From a virus (lineage: Duplodnaviria > Heunggongvirae > Uroviricota > Caudoviricetes > Crassvirales), in the IMG/VR virus record IMGVR_UViG_2974729448_000001, positions 3,318 through 67,317 of that record: a stretch of 64,000 bases of DNA. One strand, written 5' to 3'. Positions 40,059 to 45,781 of the stretch are shown here, piece after piece (positions within the stretch are counted from its first letter, which is position 1; each line of letters starts with the position of its first letter). Below the pieces are notes generated by a model, which was given only the letters and a program-made list of their open reading frames with translations, was not told where the DNA came from and did no database searches. Made by a program: the position numbers and the translations under genes.

Positions 40059-40337
40059 ATGGAAACAAGAAAAATTACAGTTATTAACAGTAAAACTCAG
40101 TCACAGAAAGTAATTGAAAATTCTACAGCAACAACTCTTGGAGAGCTTAAGGCTGAGATGAGACAGTTAGGAATTGACTATAATGGAATGGCATTTATGG
40201 AAGGTCATATCAGAGCAGAGTTGAAAGATGATGCCTCCATCCTTCCTACCAATATTCCTTACAAAGGACAGATAGTAAATGATTTGACTTTCTTGCTGAC
40301 TGCACCTGAAAAGAAAATTAAAAGCGGAAAATTCTAA
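40059..40337 (+). CDS. hypothetical protein
   Basis: 92-aa ORF preceded by an A11 tract. Confidence 0.35.
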   Translation: METRKITVINSKTQSQKVIENSTATTLGELKAEMRQLGIDYNGMAFMEGHIRAELKDDASILPTNIPYKGQIVNDLTFLLTAPEKKIKSGKF

Positions 40338-40338
40338 C

Positions 40339-40854
40339 ATGGAAATATGGAAAGATATCGTAGGATATGAAGGACTCTATAAAGTATCCAACTTAGGAAG
40401 AATTAAAAATAAGAAAGATAGATTATTAAGTCCATACCATAATACTAATGGATATATTAGTGTTGATTTATATAAAAATGGTAAGGTAAATAAATTAAGA
40501 GTACATAGAATAGTTGCAGAAGCATTTATTCTTAACCCTAACAATTTGCCTATTATAAATCACAAGAATGAAGATAAAACTGATAATAGTGTGTCTAATC
40601 TTGAGTGGTGTAATTATTCTTATAATCTTTCCTATGGAAATAGAGTAGAAAAAATGTTCAAAACAAGATTAGATAAAAACACTAAAACAGCTCAGAAAGA
40701 AGTTATACAGTATGATTTAGAAGGTAATATATTGAATATATTTACATCTATATCAGAAGCAAGTAAGTTAACTGGAATAAGCTGTGGAGCTATTTGGCAA
40801 TCTTGTAAAAAGGGACATATTACTAATAAAAAGTTTAAATGGAATTATAAATAA
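40339..40854 (+). CDS. HNH homing endonuclease (NUMOD4 + HNH_3)
   Basis: 171-aa ORF. N-terminal WKDIVGYEGLYKVSNLGRIKN (NUMOD4-like). VHRIVAEAF...NHKNEDKTDNSVSNLEW (HNH_3 motif). Confidence 0.7.
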   Translation: MEIWKDIVGYEGLYKVSNLGRIKNKKDRLLSPYHNTNGYISVDLYKNGKVNKLRVHRIVAEAFILNPNNLPIINHKNEDKTDNSVSNLEWCNYSYNLSYGNRVEKMFKTRLDKNTKTAQKEVIQYDLEGNILNIFTSISEASKLTGISCGAIWQSCKKGHITNKKFKWNYK

Positions 40855-40869
40855 AAAAAAAATTAAATT

Positions 40870-41262
40870 ATGGAAACAAAAATTATGACCAGAAATGAAC
40901 TGATTGCAGAAGCAAAAAGATTGGGATTTCCCTCAAATCCTACTCAGGCTAAGAGTTCAGTACTTCAGGATTTCATTGAAGGAAAGGCTATGAAAGCTAC
41001 TCCTGTAAAAGAAGAGAAGAAAGTAAAGAAGGTAGAAAAGTCAGAAGAAGTTGGTGTAGATGTTCCTGACTATACTGGAACCCATTGTAGTTGTGACTCT
41101 GCAAATGTTCTTAAAATCATTGTAGAAGCTTTGTATTCAAAAGATATTCTTTCAGAAGCAGACTATATAACCTGTATGAAGGCTGTTGGAGCAAAACCCA
41201 AGAAGAAAGAAAAACTTTCAGAAGGTGAAATTAGTGATATGTTCAACTTTGTCGAAAGATAA
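40870..41262 (+). CDS. hypothetical protein
   Basis: 130-aa ORF. Confidence 0.4.
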   Translation: METKIMTRNELIAEAKRLGFPSNPTQAKSSVLQDFIEGKAMKATPVKEEKKVKKVEKSEEVGVDVPDYTGTHCSCDSANVLKIIVEALYSKDILSEADYITCMKAVGAKPKKKEKLSEGEISDMFNFVER

Positions 41263-41351
41263 ATATTAGAAAAAAAAAAAATAGTAATAATAAGGATAGT
41301 AAGTTAGTAGTAGGGTAGGGATGTATAATCTCTACCCTATTTTTTTTATTT

Positions 41352-42656
41352 ATGACAAGAGAAGAGATAATAGAAGAAGTCCATAAAGCATATGATGAAT
41401 TTATGGATAAACCACGGAAAATACTTCAAATATTTGAAGATTTCTTTGGAGAAGATAAGGTGGACATGCAGGGATATCCACCATTTGAAGAGATATTGAA
41501 TGGCTTTGATAGGATAGATGTTAGGAGTATGCTGAGTGAACTTTATCCCAATAGTACTATTGACAGTATTCTTGAAGAAAATCACATTATAGAAAGAGAG
41601 ATTCTTGAGTTACCTGTTACCTCAGAGAGTGTTCTTATGAAGTGTATATTTCCTCATTTAAAGAAATTTATTGAAAGGACATTTAATGATTTGTATATTC
41701 TTGTTCATTTTCCAAGTGTTAGAGTTACTAATGAATATGGTAGATATATAGATATTCAACATCTTTATGCTAAAGTTCCTTTTTATAGTGATGGAAAAGG
41801 TAAAGGATACTTCAGCTTAAATAGGTCTGAATACCCTCTTGACCAGTTTATATGCGGTTATATGCACAGTCACATAAATATTATACCTGTTAATAATTTT
41901 ACAGCATTCCAAGCTCCTTGTACAGGAACAGGACCAATTAATTCTACATTATCTACTCTTTGTTGCAGCTTTGATGAATCAATATGGCAACTACTCTGTG
42001 TAGAACTTGACAAGTATGTAAGAGTTGAGTCTATTGCAGGAGTTCCATATAATAGATTAGAGAATGTATCATTAAATTTTAGAGGCAGTACTTATCATAG
42101 ATTTACCTTAAATTCCTTAAATGGTACTTCTACTAACTTAAGGTTCTTTGCTACTGAAGATGGCAAGAATAGGAAGTCTTTTATTAAATACTTATTAGAA
42201 AGTAATAAGCTAAAGTTCAACTTTAAAAATGGAAGTTATAGCATAGCTATGTCTCCTGTAGAATACATCATTACTGTAAGTGATGCCTTCATTGATTGGG
42301 CTAATAAAGAGTATGTTGAGGGTAGATTTGGTTATTCATTTAACTACTTCTTGGAAGCAGAGATTCTCAAGAAGGGAAAGGTAAAGAATGATATTATCTT
42401 TATATCAGGAAGCAGAAATGTCAGATTGTCAGATTATGAAAGTCATATTGGAAAGAAAGTTTGCACTTTCAAGGGAAAGGATGTTAATTTGGTCATAAAA
42501 GCACCATCACAAGAAGATTCTAATGAGGTATTATTCCTCAACACAGATGTTGCTGAGAGGATATTAAACAGTGTTTTATTAATATTAAATAGTAAATATG
42601 GAAGAGAAACAGGAGAAACCAACCTTGGAGCTGGTTCACAAAAATACTGCATTTAA
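41352..42656 (+). CDS. hypothetical protein
   Basis: 434-aa ORF immediately upstream of the JAB gene, slightly overlapping it. Confidence 0.45.
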   Translation: MTREEIIEEVHKAYDEFMDKPRKILQIFEDFFGEDKVDMQGYPPFEEILNGFDRIDVRSMLSELYPNSTIDSILEENHIIEREILELPVTSESVLMKCIFPHLKKFIERTFNDLYILVHFPSVRVTNEYGRYIDIQHLYAKVPFYSDGKGKGYFSLNRSEYPLDQFICGYMHSHINIIPVNNFTAFQAPCTGTGPINSTLSTLCCSFDESIWQLLCVELDKYVRVESIAGVPYNRLENVSLNFRGSTYHRFTLNSLNGTSTNLRFFATEDGKNRKSFIKYLLESNKLKFNFKNGSYSIAMSPVEYIITVSDAFIDWANKEYVEGRFGYSFNYFLEAEILKKGKVKNDIIFISGSRNVRLSDYESHIGKKVCTFKGKDVNLVIKAPSQEDSNEVLFLNTDVAERILNSVLLILNSKYGRETGETNLGAGSQKYCI

Positions 42657-43815
42657 GTTGGTTATACCATCAGATGTAGAAAAGAAAATAAGATTATTAT
42701 GTCAGAACATTTGGAGTGTAGAATGGTCTGGAATATTGTTTTATAAGGTAGAAGGCAACTTTGAAGACAAATCTTTAACTGTAAGATGTGTTGATATATT
42801 CCAGATGGATGAAGGAAGTGCAGCCTATACTGAATTTGATATGTCAGCAGATGTAGCCAGCTATATGATTGACCACCCTGAATTAATGGATGGAAGTACT
42901 TATCAAGGCTTGATTCATTCACATAATAACATGTCTACCTTCTTTAGTGGAACTGACACTGCAACCTTAAGCTCAGAAGGAAGTGACATGGCTCATTTTG
43001 TATCACTGATTGTGAACAATGAAGGTAAATATACTGCTGCCATTACAAGGAAATATAAGTGTGTTCAAAAGGTAGTAAAGGAATTTAGTTATCCTTCATG
43101 GAATGATGAAACTGTAACTGGTGAAGATAAGTTTGACATAGAAGAAGAGGTTCTTGAATGGTTCAATCTTAACATTGTATTTGAGAATGCAACTGACAGT
43201 TTTGAAGCTGAAATGCTTGAAAGGATTAAAGAGATTAGGAAAGCTAAAGAGGCTGCAAAGCCAGTACATACTAATTACTATCAAGCAAATGAAAATTCAA
43301 GAGGTATATATCAAGGACAGAAAAGGACAGGCACATATGTTCCATTTGGTCAGTATAACATAAAGAAAGAAGATTTTTCTTTTGAGACTACTGTGCCAAC
43401 AGCTAATCTCTCAACTAAACCAAAGCAAACTAATCTTCCTTTTGAGGATTATGAACAAAATATTCCTTATGGAAAAGTTCATGTTAATGAAGAAATTGTT
43501 GATACCATAGTTAAACAGATAATTACTGGAAGTGTGATTATTCCTGCTCCGGCTAAAATTGATTTAAGTAAATGGGTATCCTCTATGGACACTTTGTACA
43601 GAAACAGGTTTGGCTCAATTAAAGAGTTTGAAAGTTTTGCTGCAAGTTATATTGACTTTCTCATTAACTTTACAAATGACCCTGATATTGTTCATCTTGA
43701 TGCAACTGAAATGGCTGCAATCTTGGCTTTTGAAGTTACATTGAAACTTAAAGATTTGCCTAAGAATCCTTGGTTAAACTGTTATTTAGATATGTTAGAT
43801 GATTATATATTGTAA
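42598..43815 (+). CDS. JAB/MPN (JAMM) metalloprotease-domain protein
   Basis: 405-aa ORF. N-terminal domain with EWSG...HSHNNMSTFFSGTD = JAMM motif E-x(n)-H-x-H-x(7)-S-x(2)-D. Confidence 0.7.
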   Translation: MEEKQEKPTLELVHKNTAFKLVIPSDVEKKIRLLCQNIWSVEWSGILFYKVEGNFEDKSLTVRCVDIFQMDEGSAAYTEFDMSADVASYMIDHPELMDGSTYQGLIHSHNNMSTFFSGTDTATLSSEGSDMAHFVSLIVNNEGKYTAAITRKYKCVQKVVKEFSYPSWNDETVTGEDKFDIEEEVLEWFNLNIVFENATDSFEAEMLERIKEIRKAKEAAKPVHTNYYQANENSRGIYQGQKRTGTYVPFGQYNIKKEDFSFETTVPTANLSTKPKQTNLPFEDYEQNIPYGKVHVNEEIVDTIVKQIITGSVIIPAPAKIDLSKWVSSMDTLYRNRFGSIKEFESFAASYIDFLINFTNDPDIVHLDATEMAAILAFEVTLKLKDLPKNPWLNCYLDMLDDYIL

Positions 43816-43818
43816 GAT

Positions 43819-45030
43819 ATGGAAGCAATAGATTTTAATTTTGGAAGAATAGAACATTTACTACCTCCTAATACATTTGAAAGTGATTATGGTGCTCTGG
43901 GTAGTCCCATGGAACTATTAATGGAATATATTAATATTAATAGTGGATATTGTACTATTGAAAGTAATGAACGCATGGAGAATGATGTATATAGGATATG
44001 TACAAATAGAAGAAATATAGATGAATATCATACATATTATGTGAATAGAAAGTGGATGATGGCTTTAGTTTCTTCCACAGAACCTGGTTATTCCCCTATA
44101 CCAAGAATTCTTGATGTATTAGATGGGTTAATCTCTAATTCCATAAAGATAGAAGGAATTACAGAAACAGGTTATCAAAACATGGTCAAGGTACACTTTA
44201 AAGCACCTGATGGTGATGTTATTGATAATATTACTGTATGTGACTTATGGAAAGATATATTAGGGGCTTATACAAGAGTGAGAGGCCCTATTATTCCTGT
44301 AAACTCTGGAAGTTTACATGTAGATGAGACTACAAGTAGATTCAGTGGTGCAATTTGGTACAAAAACATACAAAATAAAACTATTATCCTTGCTGGTGTA
44401 GGGGGTATTGGAAGTTATGTTGCCTTCTTACTTGGAAGAATTAAGCCTCTAAACATTGTACTTTATGACCCTGATATAGTTGAACCTGCCAATATGTCAG
44501 GTCAGTTATATAGTAAAGATGATGTAGGCTCAAAGAAAGTAGACAGTATATCTAATATGATTAATAAATATGCTAATTATCACAGTATGATATGTCTATC
44601 AGAAAGGTTTACTGCTGAAAGTGAAGCTACAGATATTATGATTTGTGGTTTTGACAACATGGAAGCAAGGAGATTGTTTTTTAATAAATGGCTTAATCAT
44701 GTAGGTAATAAACCTGAGAGTGAGAGGTCTAAATGTTTATTCATTGATGGTAGATTGGCAGCAGAAGAATTTCAAGTCTTTGCTCTTCAAGGCAATGATG
44801 ATAGAGCTATAGCAGAATACAAAGATAAATGGTTGTTCAGTGATGCAGAAGCAGATGAAACTATTTGTAGCTATAAACAGACAACATTCATGGCAAATAT
44901 GATTGCATCAGTTATGGTCAATATATTTGTTAACTTTGCAGCTAATGAATGTGAGCCTCTATTTCCAAGGGATGTTCCATTTATAACCTCTTATTCTGCT
45001 GATACAATGTATTTTAAAGTAGAAATGTAG
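43819..45030 (+). CDS. E1-like (ThiF/MoeB-family) adenylyltransferase
   Basis: 403-aa ORF. ILAGVGGIGSYVAFLLGRIKPLNIVLYDPDIVEPANMSGQLY = Rossmann GxGxxG plus the D-x-D-x-V-E-x-x-N-x-x-x-Q signature of E1/ThiF enzymes. ~190-aa N-terminal extension of unknown type. Confidence 0.65.
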   Translation: MEAIDFNFGRIEHLLPPNTFESDYGALGSPMELLMEYININSGYCTIESNERMENDVYRICTNRRNIDEYHTYYVNRKWMMALVSSTEPGYSPIPRILDVLDGLISNSIKIEGITETGYQNMVKVHFKAPDGDVIDNITVCDLWKDILGAYTRVRGPIIPVNSGSLHVDETTSRFSGAIWYKNIQNKTIILAGVGGIGSYVAFLLGRIKPLNIVLYDPDIVEPANMSGQLYSKDDVGSKKVDSISNMINKYANYHSMICLSERFTAESEATDIMICGFDNMEARRLFFNKWLNHVGNKPESERSKCLFIDGRLAAEEFQVFALQGNDDRAIAEYKDKWLFSDAEADETICSYKQTTFMANMIASVMVNIFVNFAANECEPLFPRDVPFITSYSADTMYFKVEM

Positions 45031-45031
45031 T

Positions 45032-45781
45032 ATGAGAGCAGAGAGAATAGGAAGTATTATTAGATGTAACTTTTCAGACCTTCATTATATTGTTCCTTTT
45101 CAGGGAAGAAGTTTATCTAATTATTCTGAGAATAATATATTTGAGAGGTTTATTGAGGTTGATTTATCAGGAAATTCCATAGAATGTCCTGTCATGTGTA
45201 GAGTGCCTATAGAACAATATCTACGTAATTATACAAGGGAGACAGTTGAAAAGGTAACAGTTCCTTTATATACTAATAATGTACCTGTACCAAAGAGAAC
45301 AGCTTCTTCTATATTTAAATTCTTTGATACACAAGCTATAGACAGGCTTAGTAAAGTCACCACTAATAAAGGTGAAATTTATTACGGAGGAAAAGGAATT
45401 ATACTTAATTCAGAATTTAAGGTATTAGTATTGTGTGTTTGTGAATATGAACAGGGAGAGAATAGTGGTATGACAATTCCCTATATTTGTGGATACAGAG
45501 CATATATTCATCCTTCTGTATTTTTATCAAGTGGATTAGTAGAGAAAGGTATTATAAAGACTTATATTCCATCAATTGTAGATGGAAGAATTTATTGTTA
45601 TGATACAAGTAATGCCCTTGCATTATCTAATAGTCTTGAAGTTGAAGTCATTATTTCTGATGTAACTGATAAATTTATCAAGACTCCTGTTAAACCCAAG
45701 ATTGAATCCTTCACAGTAGAGAATGTAAATAAGTTCTTATTAGACAATCTTGATGAAATATGTAATATTACAAAATTATGA
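45032..45781 (+). CDS. hypothetical protein downstream of E1 (possible third component of the conjugation-like module)
   Basis: 249-aa ORF, tightly coupled to the E1 gene (stop/start 1 nt apart). Confidence 0.35.
   Translation: MRAERIGSIIRCNFSDLHYIVPFQGRSLSNYSENNIFERFIEVDLSGNSIECPVMCRVPIEQYLRNYTRETVEKVTVPLYTNNVPVPKRTASSIFKFFDTQAIDRLSKVTTNKGEIYYGGKGIILNSEFKVLVLCVCEYEQGENSGMTIPYICGYRAYIHPSVFLSSGLVEKGIIKTYIPSIVDGRIYCYDTSNALALSNSLEVEVIISDVTDKFIKTPVKPKIESFTVENVNKFLLDNLDEICNITKL

Follow-up and report, generated by a model that had tools for sequence, protein, structure and literature searches.

A phage-restricted gene module in crAss-like phages with the predicted components of a ubiquitin-like conjugation system

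Introduction

To our knowledge, ubiquitin-type tagging kits have so far been known in bacteria as anti-phage defences and not in phages, and the only pair of a ubiquitin-like protein (Ubl) and a JAB peptidase previously described in a phage is that of lambda-type TAPI (Ubl) and TAPK (JAB + NlpC/P60). Among eukaryotic pathways, UFMylation is served by a minimal E1, UBA5, which has a single adenylation domain, passes its Ubl to a separate E2 and serves a protein-conjugating Ubl; that Ubl, UFM1, terminates in a single Gly, exposed when a short extension is removed. In the bacterial Bil system, BilC cleaves BilA past a conserved Gly, with up to 9 residues lying beyond it (bioRxiv 10.1101/2023.09.26.559546), and the JAB domain of BubCD likewise cleaves the Ubl-E2 fusion BubAB past a conserved Gly (PMC11601596). 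TAPI carries a C-terminal domain beyond its Ubl, with a linker between the two (PMC1779556), an arrangement that resembles the phage Ubl precursor described below. Here we describe a crAss-like phage with an apparently full tagging kit, consisting of a tag, an activating enzyme, a probable carrier enzyme and a trimming protease, beside its replication genes.

Gene order, genomic position and distribution

The window, a 64,000-nucleotide stretch of DNA, comes from phage cr106_1 (Crassvirales, Steigviridae), a crAss-like gut phage. The initial annotation had singled out a JAB gene and an adjacent E1/ThiF gene, together with a 434-aa ORF that slightly overlaps the former and a tightly coupled 249-aa ORF that follows the latter. 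All four ORFs are present on the + strand (434, 405, 403 and 249 aa; Table 1); the overlap, which amounts to 59 nt, and the coupling of the 249-aa ORF to the E1 gene are real and retained in relatives. The accompanying statement that no Ubl or beta-grasp gene could be recognised does not hold, as a Ubl is encoded upstream of these four ORFs. The functional unit begins at 40059 and the region spans 40059-45781.

Table 1. Coordinates of the features described, with the evidence for each
Feature	Coordinates	Strand	Evidence
Ubiquitin-like protein, 92 aa	40059..40337	+	beta-grasp AF2 model, Foldseek matches, homology to crAss001 Gp79
HNH (NUMOD4/HNH_3-type) homing endonuclease gene	40339..40854	+	annotated HNH endonuclease; at Ubl/tail junction
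Tail ORF, 130 aa	40870..41262	+	C-terminal part of ancestral Ubl precursor (crAss001 Gp79 residues ~91-225)
Intrinsic-terminator-like hairpin, 14-bp stem + U-run	41309..41341	+	terminator scan; separates Ubl/tail genes from enzyme genes
Putative E2, 434 aa	41352..42656	+	UBC/RWD/UEV-like predicted fold, invariant Cys
JAB/JAMM (MPN+) zinc metalloprotease, 405 aa	42598..43815	+	Pfam Prok-JAB, PADLOC JAB, invariant catalytic residues
E1-like adenylyltransferase, 403 aa	43819..45030	+	Pfam ThiF; PDB profile search led by UBA5
249-aa protein, function unassigned	45032..45781	+	always next gene 3' of E1; in all loci examined

We examined 80 IMG/VR loci, drawn from ~280 matching phage contigs, and the order Ubl, E2-like, JAB, E1, 249-aa ORF was identical in every locus that was complete. 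The same order is maintained in all annotated Steigviridae relatives and in crAss001, cr111_1 and Dulem virus 41, and the five genes are also preserved in this order in Flavobacterium phage FpV4, where primase and UDG both lie upstream of the module. This constancy argues that the JAB and E1 genes are not neighbours by chance. Absence of the module from all relatives, which would have counted against the initial proposal, is not what is seen. Among 185,579 species genomes only 4 matches were found, all on MAG contigs, and one of the four, a 94,451-bp contig, is present in IMG/VR too, as a viral genome. The module is phage-restricted and essentially absent from bacterial genomes; it is not a stray host operon. 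Its position is likewise fixed, within a replication block among primase, UDG, recombination nuclease and RNR genes, and the neighbouring nucleotide-metabolism genes comprise UDG, RNR and dUTPase. Co-transcription of the Ubl and tail genes with the enzyme genes is not assured, given the terminator-like hairpin between them; crAss001-like loci carry a hairpin and U-run of different sequence at the equivalent intergenic site (dG -24 to -28 kcal/mol).

The ubiquitin-like protein and its interrupted precursor

The AF2 model of the Ubl, built from an 18-sequence alignment (pLDDT 85.8, pTM 0.74), has the topology bb-a-bb..b, with residues 82-92 forming a disordered tail. The top 50 Foldseek matches of this model in the PDB are nearly all beta-grasp proteins, mainly ubiquitin, SUMO1, DIX and UBX (E ~3e-3, prob 0.97-1.0, TMq 0.43-0.61), and neither ThiS nor MoaD is found among them. 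The C-terminus is a flexible tail, ...APEKKIKSG, followed in cr106_1 by two additional residues (KF). Alignment of 22 diverse homologues shows S89 and G90 to be invariant, and the Ser-Gly is retained also in cr111_1, Dulem virus 41 and FpV4; across homologues the basic tail reads KKI[KR]SG, and a variable linker and then a different domain follow the SG. A C-terminal Gly-Gly was raised in the initial annotation as a feature to be sought in neighbouring genes; the Ubl has an invariant Ser-Gly instead.

The Ubl is 82% identical to residues 1-90 of crAss001 Gp79. In most relatives it forms the N-terminal domain of a ~225-aa precursor encoded by an unsplit gene of 208-252 aa, whereas in cr106_1 a homing HNH endonuclease gene interrupts the precursor gene just past the Ser-Gly codons, leaving a 92-aa Ubl with two extra residues. 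Homologous HNH genes occupy the identical Ubl/tail junction in other lineages (loci L082, L171/L172 and L173). In the split-gene lineages, the Ubl is 54-100% identical to that of cr106_1 and both halves are kept as ORFs, indicating that separate polypeptides are tolerated at this junction. The HNH gene is a mobile insertion and no working part of the module, yet it marks the domain boundary. Downstream of it, the tail ORF matches the Gp79 C-terminus (38% identity, E 6e-8, BLASTP), a correspondence supported by the alignment of homologues, and begins with a helical motif, continues with a linker rich in K, E, A and P and closes with a conserved helical part ending in ..S..EI..MF.F; its assignment as a SAP/HeH domain finds no support in a Pfam search.

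The protease, the E1-like enzyme and their partners

Both enzyme assignments of the initial annotation were confirmed by profile searches. The JAB ORF, described there as carrying a JAMM motif and an upstream conserved Glu, matches Pfam Prok-JAB (PF14464) over aa 31-141 (E 1.1e-6, 28.9 bits vs a cutoff of 25) and the PADLOC JAB model (E 6.3e-5), and its catalytic set, E42 and H107-S-H109-x7-S117-x2-D120, is invariant across 74 distinct homologues. The protease occupies the N-terminal ~145 aa; beyond it come a linker that varies and a C-terminal domain that is conserved and has no assigned function. We regard the protein as a putative Ubl-processing and deconjugating peptidase, its activity being inferred.

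The next ORF matches Pfam ThiF (PF00899) over aa 181-372 (E 5.3e-17, 62.2 bits vs a cutoff of 28.1), and its motifs GVGGIGS, DPDIVEPANMSGQ, DNMEARR, IDGRLAAEE and CSYKQT vary little or not at all. It contains a single ThiF/MoeB/UBA5-type adenylation domain (aa ~158-403, ~245 aa) with an invariant Cys350, and its ATP-binding motif NLxRQ lacks the conserved Arg, reading NMSGQ. The region preceding this domain (aa 1-157) is lineage-specific and hypervariable, not being conserved even among 78%-identical relatives, and is missing in cr111_1, Dulem virus 41 and FpV4. When searched as a profile against the PDB, the E1 retrieves UBA5 first (6.6e-12), then MccB, PaaA, TcdA, MoeB and ThiF, with MoeB and ThiF far behind at ~2e-7; as a single sequence, its best families are MccB/PaaA. 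The best NCBIfam models are ThiF (1.5e-17), far below cutoff.

The 434-aa and 249-aa ORFs had been put forward as candidates for E2-like or Ubl components. The first part of this suggestion is met by the 434-aa protein, for which the predicted fold places a central E2/UBC-like domain (RWD/UEV superfold) at ~aa 93-225, with an invariant H172-S173-H174 and an invariant C190-x-G-x-G-P in the loop following the beta-meander; the Ubl is neither of the two. On the N-terminal side of the E2/UBC-like domain lies a helical domain that varies, and on its C-terminal side an alpha/beta domain (aa ~245-412) that is conserved. On the strength of the model we treat the protein as the putative E2 of the module, its E2 function being inferred and the overlay of Cys190 on the E2 catalytic Cys unconfirmed. 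The 249-aa protein is fast-evolving, with a conserved motif TNKGE[IV]YYGGKGII and, in the alignment, no conserved Cys or His. It has no match in Pfam, PHROG, NCBIfam, PADLOC or the PDB, and remains a candidate adaptor or substrate.

A conjugation system and its alternatives

The beta-grasp Ubl with its Ser-Gly, the E2-like fold with an invariant Cys, the E1 nearest to UBA5 and the synteny lead us to read the region as a phage-borne Ubl conjugation system composed of a Ubl, an E2-like protein, a JAB protease, a minimal E1 and one accessory protein. We consider this reading probable, though well short of secure; it upholds the initial view of the JAB-E1 pair as the core of a Ubl conjugation/deconjugation module. 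It builds on computed domain identities, catalytic-residue conservation, Ubl fold, synteny and phage-restricted distribution. In the proposed scheme, the Ubl would be synthesised as a precursor, either as the N-terminal domain of the ~225-aa protein of most relatives or, in cr106_1, as 92 aa including two extra residues. The JAB protease would cleave past the invariant Ser-Gly to expose Gly90, a cut for which those made by BilC and BubCD are precedents, freeing the tail protein in fused forms; the UBA5/MoeB-like E1 would adenylate Gly90, probably loading the Ubl onto Cys350, from which it could be handed to Cys190 in the E2-like domain. The target lysine would be chosen by the C-terminal domain of the 434-aa protein, perhaps also by the 249-aa protein, and the JAB protease may also undo the modification. 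Cleavage at Ser-Gly, the thioester relay, the E2 function and the nature of the target are all inferred. The constant placement of the module amid primase, UDG, recombination nuclease and RNR genes suggests that the target, whether from phage or host, is a protein that works on DNA in the course of replication; the actual target is unidentified.

Some observations sit against the conjugation reading. The Ubl ends in Ser-Gly rather than Gly-Gly, and the E1 is without the NLxRQ Arg; no E3 and no target have been identified, and experimental support is lacking altogether. The reading also leaves three things unexplained: the 249-aa protein, the C-terminal part of the JAB protein and the tail protein.

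The conjugation might dispense with an E2, as in the archaeal SAMP/UbaA/HvJAMM1 and Thermus TtuB/TtuC systems: the E1 would transfer the Ubl directly, and the 434-aa protein would be a scaffold, a metal-binding enzyme, a replication factor of RWD fold by chance, or a substrate. We hold this to be unlikely, if still worth keeping in mind. These systems share with the phage module a small beta-grasp modifier, a MoeB-like single-domain E1, a JAMM protease and the lack of a classical E3; unlike it, they have no E2, double as sulfur carriers and end in Gly-Gly, and the phage E1 scores only 23.6 bits against the NCBIfam SAMP-E1 UbaA model (cutoff 450). Alternatively, the chemistry could be as we propose and its purpose the antagonism of immunity rather than the regulation of replication, with the JAB protease stripping, or the E1, E2-like protein and Ubl saturating or mis-targeting, a host Ubl defence (Bil, Bub, type II CBASS Cap2), or with host defence proteins being tagged for inactivation. 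Every characterised bacterial relative (Bil, Bub, Cap2/Cap3) works in phage-host conflict, the hypervariable E1 N-terminal region has the pattern typical of an arms-race interface, and the module gives weak matches to the PADLOC E1-E2 (Cap2), BilD and JAB models. We nevertheless find counter-defence quite unlikely: the module is fixed and vertically inherited in the replication block of all Steigviridae examined and of FpV4-like phages, whereas accessory genes against defence tend to vary; to reverse host conjugation, a DUB by itself would be enough; and several lineages do without the hypervariable extension.

The sulfur-carrier pathway (ThiS/MoaD/CysO type) that the initial annotation had left possible is disfavoured, not excluded, and we rate it as improbable. 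A ThiS/MoaD/CysO/TtuB-like Ubl would here be trimmed by the JAB protease and adenylated by the E1, its thiocarboxylate serving nucleotide, DNA-base or tRNA thiomodification and Cys190 of the 434-aa protein acting as a persulfide relay or in a sulfur-insertion enzyme. JAB-trimmed sulfur carriers are established (CysO/Mec+), ThiF models lead the NCBIfam matches of the E1, and the neighbours are genes of nucleotide metabolism. Set against this, it is ubiquitin, SUMO and DIX that the Ubl model resembles, not ThiS or MoaD, the terminus of the Ubl is Ser-Gly and not Gly-Gly, UBA5 stands far above MoeB/ThiF in the E1 profile (6.6e-12 vs ~2e-7), and the 434-aa protein has a UBC/RWD-like predicted fold; moreover, no rhodanese, cysteine desulfurase, PP-loop ATPase (TtuA/NcsA type), ThiG, MoaE or CysM is annotated in 16-20-kb stretches of the window, crAss001, cr111_1 and Dulem virus 41. 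Least credible, to the point that we would be surprised by it, is C-terminal adenylation of the MccB/PaaA kind to an end other than conjugation, for instance to turn the Ubl tail or some other peptide into a peptidyl-nucleotide or a cyclised product. Among PDB families, MccB and PaaA rank second and third with the E1 profile and come first with the single sequence, but the similarity is confined to the common Rossmann/ATP-binding core. There is no conserved RRE or peptide-clamp domain, the E1 N-terminus being variable or absent; precursor peptide, transporter and immunity gene are all absent, and a folded beta-grasp with an SG tail beside a JAB protease suits Ubl logic much better.

Comparison with known systems

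Membership in CBASS Cap2/Cap3 or Bil, to which the initial annotation had related the gene pair, is rejected by sequence. Unlike Type II CBASS, the phage module has no CD-NTase or effector, its E1 and E2 are unfused, and a dedicated beta-grasp Ubl takes the place of the CD-NTase C-terminus. The PRTRC (ParB-related, ThiF-related cassette) of plasmids and ICEs resembles it in pairing ThiF and JAB-like genes on a mobile element beside DNA-maintenance genes. The matches are weak and far below cutoffs (PRTRC_ThiF 1.8e-10, 40.6 vs 144.75; PRTRC_A 9e-4, 18.8 vs 101.8), no ParB is annotated near the module, and the 434-aa and 249-aa ORFs match no NCBIfam model, including PRTRC B, C, E and F. Lambda TAPI/TAPK differ in lying in the tail-assembly module without an E1 or E2-like protein, presumably with no adenylation chemistry. 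Type I Bub (6E/DUF6527) fuses Ubl to E2 and JAB to E1, whereas the phage proteins are separate; it uses oxyester (Ser) intermediates, whereas the phage E1 and E2-like protein retain an invariant Cys; and it has a DUF6527 serine protease, which the phage module lacks. The fusion partner of the phage Ubl is an unrelated tail protein.

The module resembles UFMylation in its E1, UBA5 being the best solved relative of the phage profile, and UFM1 likewise ends in a single Gly. It is unlike that pathway in having no UFC1, UFL1 or UFSP homologue and a JAB metalloprotease instead of a Cys-type one, and no UBA5-type UIS/UFC1-binding tail was detected in the phage E1. BilABCD, the bacterial ISG15-like anti-phage system (Types I and II), resides in bacterial defence islands, whereas the phage module lies in the replication block of a lytic phage. 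The Bil E1 has an IAD-AAD-CYS architecture in place of the single ~245-aa UBA5/MoeB-like domain of the phage E1. In sequence the phage E2-like protein bears no detectable resemblance to BilB, and it has additional domains at both its N- and C-terminal ends; the phage Ubl usually has a ~135-aa protein fused to its C-terminus, and a fifth gene (249 aa) is conserved. The two systems are nevertheless alike in having no E3, the Bil E2 being thought to pick the target, in a Ubl whose conserved C-terminal Gly is followed by non-conserved residues, which in Bil the operon's own JAB peptidase removes, and in encoding Ubl, E2, JAB peptidase and E1 in equal content and order.

Gene order and phyletic distribution of the module

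The region under study is 100% identical to the uncultured phage cr106_1 (MT774378.1; Crassvirales, Steigviridae, Asinivirinae, Mahstovirus faecalis), with window coordinates equal to those of that record minus 3317. The four ORFs reported in the initial annotation are all present as described, namely a 434-aa ORF (ORF A), a JAB gene (ORF B), an E1/ThiF gene (ORF C) and a 249-aa ORF (ORF D), and GenBank labels each of the four a hypothetical protein in cr106_1. Their crAss001 counterparts, Gp78 to Gp75, are annotated respectively as 'hypothetical', 'metalloprotease domain containing protein', 'thiamine biosynthesis protein ThiF' and 'hypothetical', with UDG next. Further neighbors in the window comprise genes for a primase, an HNH endonuclease, UDG and nucleases.

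Among 80 related IMG/VR loci, every complete one retains the order primase, Ubl precursor, ORF A, JAB, E1, ORF D and UDG, and the identical order recurs in crAss001, cr111_1 and Dulem virus 41. In tblastn searches, ORF A matched 45 of 50,697 phage records, and those inspected were all Steigviridae or unclassified crAss-like phages. Across 185,579 bacterial and archaeal species, each represented by one genome, only four MAG contigs carried ORF A, one of which (94,451 bp) was also returned as a viral genome by the IMG/VR scan. Given this synteny and phage-restricted distribution (Steigviridae, the FpV4 group and only those four MAG contigs), the module is a core feature passed on vertically within a group of Bacteroidota phages, rather than a host defense operon captured recently.

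A search with the conserved E1 core also picked up 29 records of phages of Flavobacterium psychrophilum, the FpV4 group (genus Fipvunavirus), which taxonomy does not place in Crassvirales. Their gene order runs primase, UDG, Ubl precursor (gp53), ORF A homolog (gp52), a weak JAB (gp51), ThiF (gp50) and gp49, offering a second cultivable test system. Here gp52 is a clear ORF A homolog (hhalign 98.7%, E 1.6e-16) that keeps the GYMHSH motif and the Cys; homology of gp49 to ORF D could not be established (hhalign 9% probability), the similarity being confined to a YxGKG motif. Jumbo phages of Xanthomonas and Erwinia likewise yielded a ThiF, 28% identical to this E1 core, with no recognizable partners. 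That gene has DNA ligase and topoisomerase genes on either side and is next to 892-aa, 70-aa and 243-aa ORFs for which we found no link to the JAB, Ubl or ORF A families; the 892-aa neighbor was specifically compared as a candidate ORF A homolog, with a negative result.

Coordinates of the module, its neighbors and related features in other phages
Feature	Sequence	Coordinates	Strand	Remarks
Ubl, 92 aa	window	40059-40337		directly after primase gene; 82% identity to residues 1-90 of crAss001 Gp79 (225 aa)
HNH endonuclease gene (NUMOD4/HNH_3)	window	40339-40854		between Ubl and tail ORF
Tail ORF, 130 aa	window	40870-41262		corresponds to remainder of Gp79
Terminator-like hairpin and U-run	window	41309-41341	+	separates tail ORF from ORF A
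ORF A, 434 aa	window	41352-42656		putative E2; crAss001 Gp78
ORF A/JAB overlap, 59 nt	window	42598-42656		JAB in +1 frame
ORF B, JAB	window	42598-43815		crAss001 Gp77
ORF C, E1/ThiF	window	43819-45030		crAss001 Gp76
E1 N-terminal extension, residues 1-157	window	43819-44289		hypervariable
ORF D, 249 aa	window	45032-45781		crAss001 Gp75
Hairpin and U-run	crAss001-like locus L002	about 7580-7625		position as in window, different sequence
NUMOD4/HNH_3 gene	related locus L082	4356-4868		same junction
NUMOD4/HNH_3 gene	related locus L171	4826-5377		same junction
NUMOD4/HNH_3 gene	related locus L173	3332-3850		same junction
JAB region, fragmented in appearance	related locus L171	7137-9588		called genes of 119, 149 and 287 aa
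FpV4 module	Flavobacterium phage FpV4 (L089), NC_041872.1	3652-8754		adjoins primase and UDG
Region with ThiF-type E1 (227 aa) and neighboring ORFs	Xanthomonas phage PhiXhv-12 (L090), PV764601.1	3265-7515		jumbo phage

The strong, intrinsic-terminator-like hairpin preceding ORF A, found at the same position in crAss001-like loci, may mark a transcription-unit boundary or attenuator within the module; by inference only, it could allow more of the modifier to be made than of the enzymes. The overlap of ORF A with JAB is kept, at ~60-70 nt, in most relatives examined (exceptions are locus L023 and FpV4), suggesting translational coupling; the C-terminal tail of ORF A encoded there is poorly conserved and modeled with low pLDDT. 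In L171, a metagenomic relative, the JAB region appears fragmented and there is a gap between ORF A and ThiF, which may reflect a further insertion or an assembly problem. Over the whole window (1-64000), GC skew changes sign near 22-24 kb, from negative to positive, consistent with the two divergently oriented gene blocks of a crAss-like genome.

A predicted beta-grasp modifier and its proposed precursor

No Ubl or beta-grasp gene had been recognized initially; we identified one outside the flanking ORFs then proposed as candidates. In nearly all of the 80 loci, the corresponding precursor gene is unsplit and encodes 208-252 aa. The N-terminal 90 residues of the precursor end in KKI[K/R]SG, with Ser89 and Gly90 invariant in the alignment. 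Where a C-terminal Gly-Gly was to be looked for in processed neighbors, the conserved pair here is Ser-Gly. It is kept even in the most distant relatives, namely cr111_1 (..KKIRSG/AMSR), Dulem virus 41 (..KKVSSG/TLSR) and FpV4 gp53 (..QVKSG/GRGD). The residues immediately following differ in both sequence and length among relatives (AM, AVAM, ATSM, AIVM and others), as a linker would.

AlphaFold2 modeling from an 18-sequence alignment yielded a confident beta-grasp fold (pLDDT 85.8, pTM 0.74) of topology bb-a-bb..b, with residues 82-92 disordered. The model thus has the form expected of modifiers in Ubl systems generally, a beta-grasp whose C-terminal tail is flexible and ends in Gly. Its top 50 Foldseek matches in the PDB (E about 3e-3, prob 0.97-1.0, TMq 0.43-0.61) are nearly all beta-grasp proteins, including ubiquitin, SUMO1, DIX, UBX, FERM-F1 and other Ubl domains; neither ThiS nor MoaD appears among these 50. 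A single one of the 18 Ubl homologs matched PADLOC BilA, without significance (E 0.034). The tail protein could not be assigned to any family; a SAP/HeH identity suspected by eye gained no Pfam support in five homologs.

In the window, the precursor gene is split just after the Ser-Gly codons into the Ubl plus 2 aa and a separate tail ORF (130-142 aa across split genes). Free-standing Ubls occur in several lineages at 54-100% identity to that of the window, ending in SG followed by KF, KC, KI, IL or IC. In all four contexts inspected (L082, L171, L172 and L173), an HNH gene directly follows; the tail ORF comes after it in L082, L171 and L172, and the L173 contig stops 107 nt past its HNH gene. 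Our reading is that a single homing-endonuclease lineage targets the conserved KKIKSG-coding sequence. The split forms show that division of the protein right behind Ser-Gly can be tolerated; were the fused form cut there post-translationally, such tolerance would be expected. The insertion gives a 'gene in pieces' where a protease putatively cleaves. A direct precedent for such a cut is BilC, which cleaves BilA after a conserved Gly trailed by up to nine residues (bioRxiv 10.1101/2023.09.26.559546).

The JAB peptidase and a minimal E1

The assignment of ORF B as a JAMM metalloprotease was confirmed by a Pfam Prok-JAB match above the gathering score (E 1.1e-6) and a full JAMM signature. The JAMM/MPN+ pattern of Ubl systems, E...HxH-x7-S-xx-D, is met, and its five residues (E42, H107-x-H109, S117 and D120) are invariant in 74 distinct homologs. 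No domain could be assigned to the C-terminal ~250 residues.

Likewise, ORF C passed the Pfam ThiF model (E 5.3e-17), in agreement with its initial designation as an E1/ThiF protein. Ten divergent homologs share an N-terminal RFS..W, GxGGIGS, D-x-D-x-V...N..GQ, DNM..R and IDGRL.AE, together with an invariant Cys within CSYKQT, which is Cys350 in the protein of the window. These satisfy the definition of a ThiF/MoeB-type adenylation domain (GxGxxG, DxD, DNMxxR and an invariant Cys) with one deviation, the Arg of the usual NLxRQ motif being replaced by Gly (NMSGQ). When the family profile was searched against PDB sequences, UBA5 led (6.6e-12), followed by MccB, PaaA, TcdA, MoeB, ThiF, UBA7, Cap2, UBA1 and BubCD. 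As all NCBIfam equivalog matches (ThiF, MoeB, PRTRC_ThiF, cap2_3 and UbaA) also fall far below their cutoffs, we regard this E1 as a distinct subfamily of minimal single-domain E1s. The conserved core is a single domain of ~245 aa, and relatives of 228-251 aa in total are known. The N-terminal extension is hypervariable in length and sequence, even between relatives sharing 78% identity in the core, with ORFs of 292-442 aa, and is absent from cr111_1, Dulem virus 41 and FpV4; on these same grounds, we rejected it as a Cap2-like fused E2. It may instead be a specificity or arms-race interface.

A candidate E2-like family and ORF D

ORF A had no Pfam, PHROG, NCBIfam or PDB-sequence match, and none of 88 family members matched any E2 model in Pfam or PADLOC. 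A PADLOC hit of ORF A to Csx1 (E 1.6e-5) was dismissed as chance since just one of the 88 members produced it. The family is nevertheless large, with 2275 representatives at 50% clustering (E <= 1e-3), 844 of them at E <= 1e-30. Fifteen residues are invariant in the 88 sequences, including S173, H174, C190, G192, G194, P195, E218 and E226, and H172 is nearly so. The AlphaFold2 model built from this alignment is confident (pLDDT 89.4, pTM 0.78) and comprises an N-terminal helical region, a central unit of one helix (93-110), three long antiparallel strands (114-162) and further helices (196-224), and a C-terminal alpha/beta domain (about 245-412). Its fold likenesses include RWD domains (GCN2, RWDD1/3, CTF19, Knl1, Spc25 and Mediator Med14/17), UEV domains (Tsg101, BRE/BRCC45, Vps37A and AKTIP), FANCL and many catalytic E2s (UBE2N, UBE2D, UBE2F, UBE2T, UBE2K and others). 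A well-modeled loop (168-195) bears the HSH motif and Cys190, and its predicted position, past the beta-meander and ahead of the helices, resembles that of the HPN...Cys active site in E2s. Foldseek of the model against the PDB returned nothing significant and comparing the family profile with E. aridi BilB by hhalign gave 0.3% probability, so the E2 assignment, which rests on this model, is probable and not established; superposition of Cys190 was not inspected.

Of the two flanking ORFs put forward initially as E2 or Ubl components, ORF A thus probably qualifies through its predicted E2-like fold, but the 249-aa ORF D gained no support from any library. It lacks matches in Pfam, PHROGs, NCBIfam, PADLOC and PDB profile searches, with no relatives detected outside these phages. 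The alignment indicates fast evolution, retention of a TNKGE[IV]YYGGKGII motif and no conserved Cys or His.

A proposed ubiquitin-like cascade and its alternatives

From these parts we propose that Steigviridae crAss-like phages and Flavobacterium FpV4-like phages encode a complete, self-contained Ubl cascade, which would be the first known in a virus of bacteria and would serve in replication to tag phage or host proteins covalently. Its modifier would come from a polyprotein-type precursor, its E1 would be minimal and UBA5-like, its E2 would represent a new family, and a JAB would carry out both processing and deconjugation. We hold this reading with as much doubt as conviction, and all functional statements, including formation of an isopeptide conjugate, are computational inferences. 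In such a cascade, the JAB would mature the precursor at Ser-Gly; the UBA5/MoeB-like E1 would adenylate the Ubl and probably form a thioester on Cys350; the Ubl would pass to Cys190 of the E2-like protein; conjugation would follow on a target picked by the C-terminal domain of ORF A, by ORF D or by both; and the JAB might reverse the modification.

A Ubl cascade is the most economical model to give every conserved part a role. The weightiest rival is an E2-independent, SAMP-like system with another role for ORF A. Next in weight stands the same chemistry aimed at host defenses. A sulfur-carrier pathway, ranked third, is disfavored: the Ubl ends in Ser-Gly and not in the Gly-Gly that defines such pathways, its model is ubiquitin-like and not ThiS-like, the E1 shows affinity to UBA5, and no adjacent sulfur-handling partner (ThiG, MoaE, CysM, TtuA, rhodanese or desulfurase) is annotated in the 16-20-kb stretches examined in four genomes. 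Ranked last, MccB-like peptide chemistry finds some echo in the place of MccB behind UBA5 in the E1 profile search.

In the literature searched, we found no paper that connects Ubl conjugation, JAB or ThiF with crAss-like phages. Records of crAss001 already carried annotations of its JAB and ThiF domains. What appears to be new is the Ubl precursor and the E2-like family, that a complete cascade is recognized in a phage, and that FpV4-like phages carry it too. Steigviridae crAss-like phages are among the most abundant human gut viruses, and prokaryotic Ubl-conjugation operons (Bil, Bub and Cap2/Cap3) are currently understood as bacterial anti-phage weapons. If our proposal is true, then phages, too, use ubiquitin-type tagging, by means of a conserved, vertically inherited Ubl/E2-like/JAB/E1 set that forms part of the replication module in a major gut phage family, and the cascade would be a possible source or sink for bacterial Bil/Bub defense systems. 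It would also add a new E2-like family of about 2,300 clusters at 50% identity without a Pfam model, a naturally occurring polyprotein precursor of a Ubl, comparable to the ubiquitin fusions of eukaryotes, and a testable function for four to five hypothetical or mis-named crAss001-like core genes (Gp75-Gp79, among them the 'thiamine biosynthesis protein'). As crAss001, DAC15 and FpV4 are cultivable, the prediction is directly testable.

Comparison with known Ubl systems

The only phage Ubl and JAB pair described in the literature searched is lambda tail-assembly TAPI/TAPK, which has no E1 (PMC1779556). A PRTRC cassette was rejected: PRTRC_ThiF scored 40.6 against a cutoff of 144.75 and PRTRC_A 18.8 against 101.8, ORFs A and D had no matches, and the other components are absent. 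Type II CBASS requires a CD-NTase and the E2-E1 fusion Cap2, neither of which is present (NCBIfam cap2_3 35.7 against 320); unlike in Cap2, the stretch preceding the E1 core is hypervariable, where it exists at all, and contains no conserved E2. Bub systems are defined by the DUF6527 protease BubE, and no ORF matched DUF6527; moreover, Ser replaces the catalytic Cys in the Bub E1/E2, whereas here Cys is invariant in both the E1 and the E2-like protein.

The closest parallel is Bil, as the gene content and order of the module equal BilA-B-C-D. A Ubl with a conserved Gly and a short non-conserved extension, accompanied by an operonic JAB, is present as in Bil. Three of the five Bil-defining features fail: a BilB-type E2 (Prok-E2/CEHH family) is not recognizable by sequence; the E1 is not a tandem-domain BilD, the PADLOC BilD match being partial (6.3e-7, aa 190-286); and the bacterial genome or defense-island setting of BilABCD is replaced by lytic crAss-like and FpV4-like phages. 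By sequence, the module belongs to neither Bil nor Cap2/Cap3, the systems named initially. By inference the module works like Bil and Bub; it is a member of neither.
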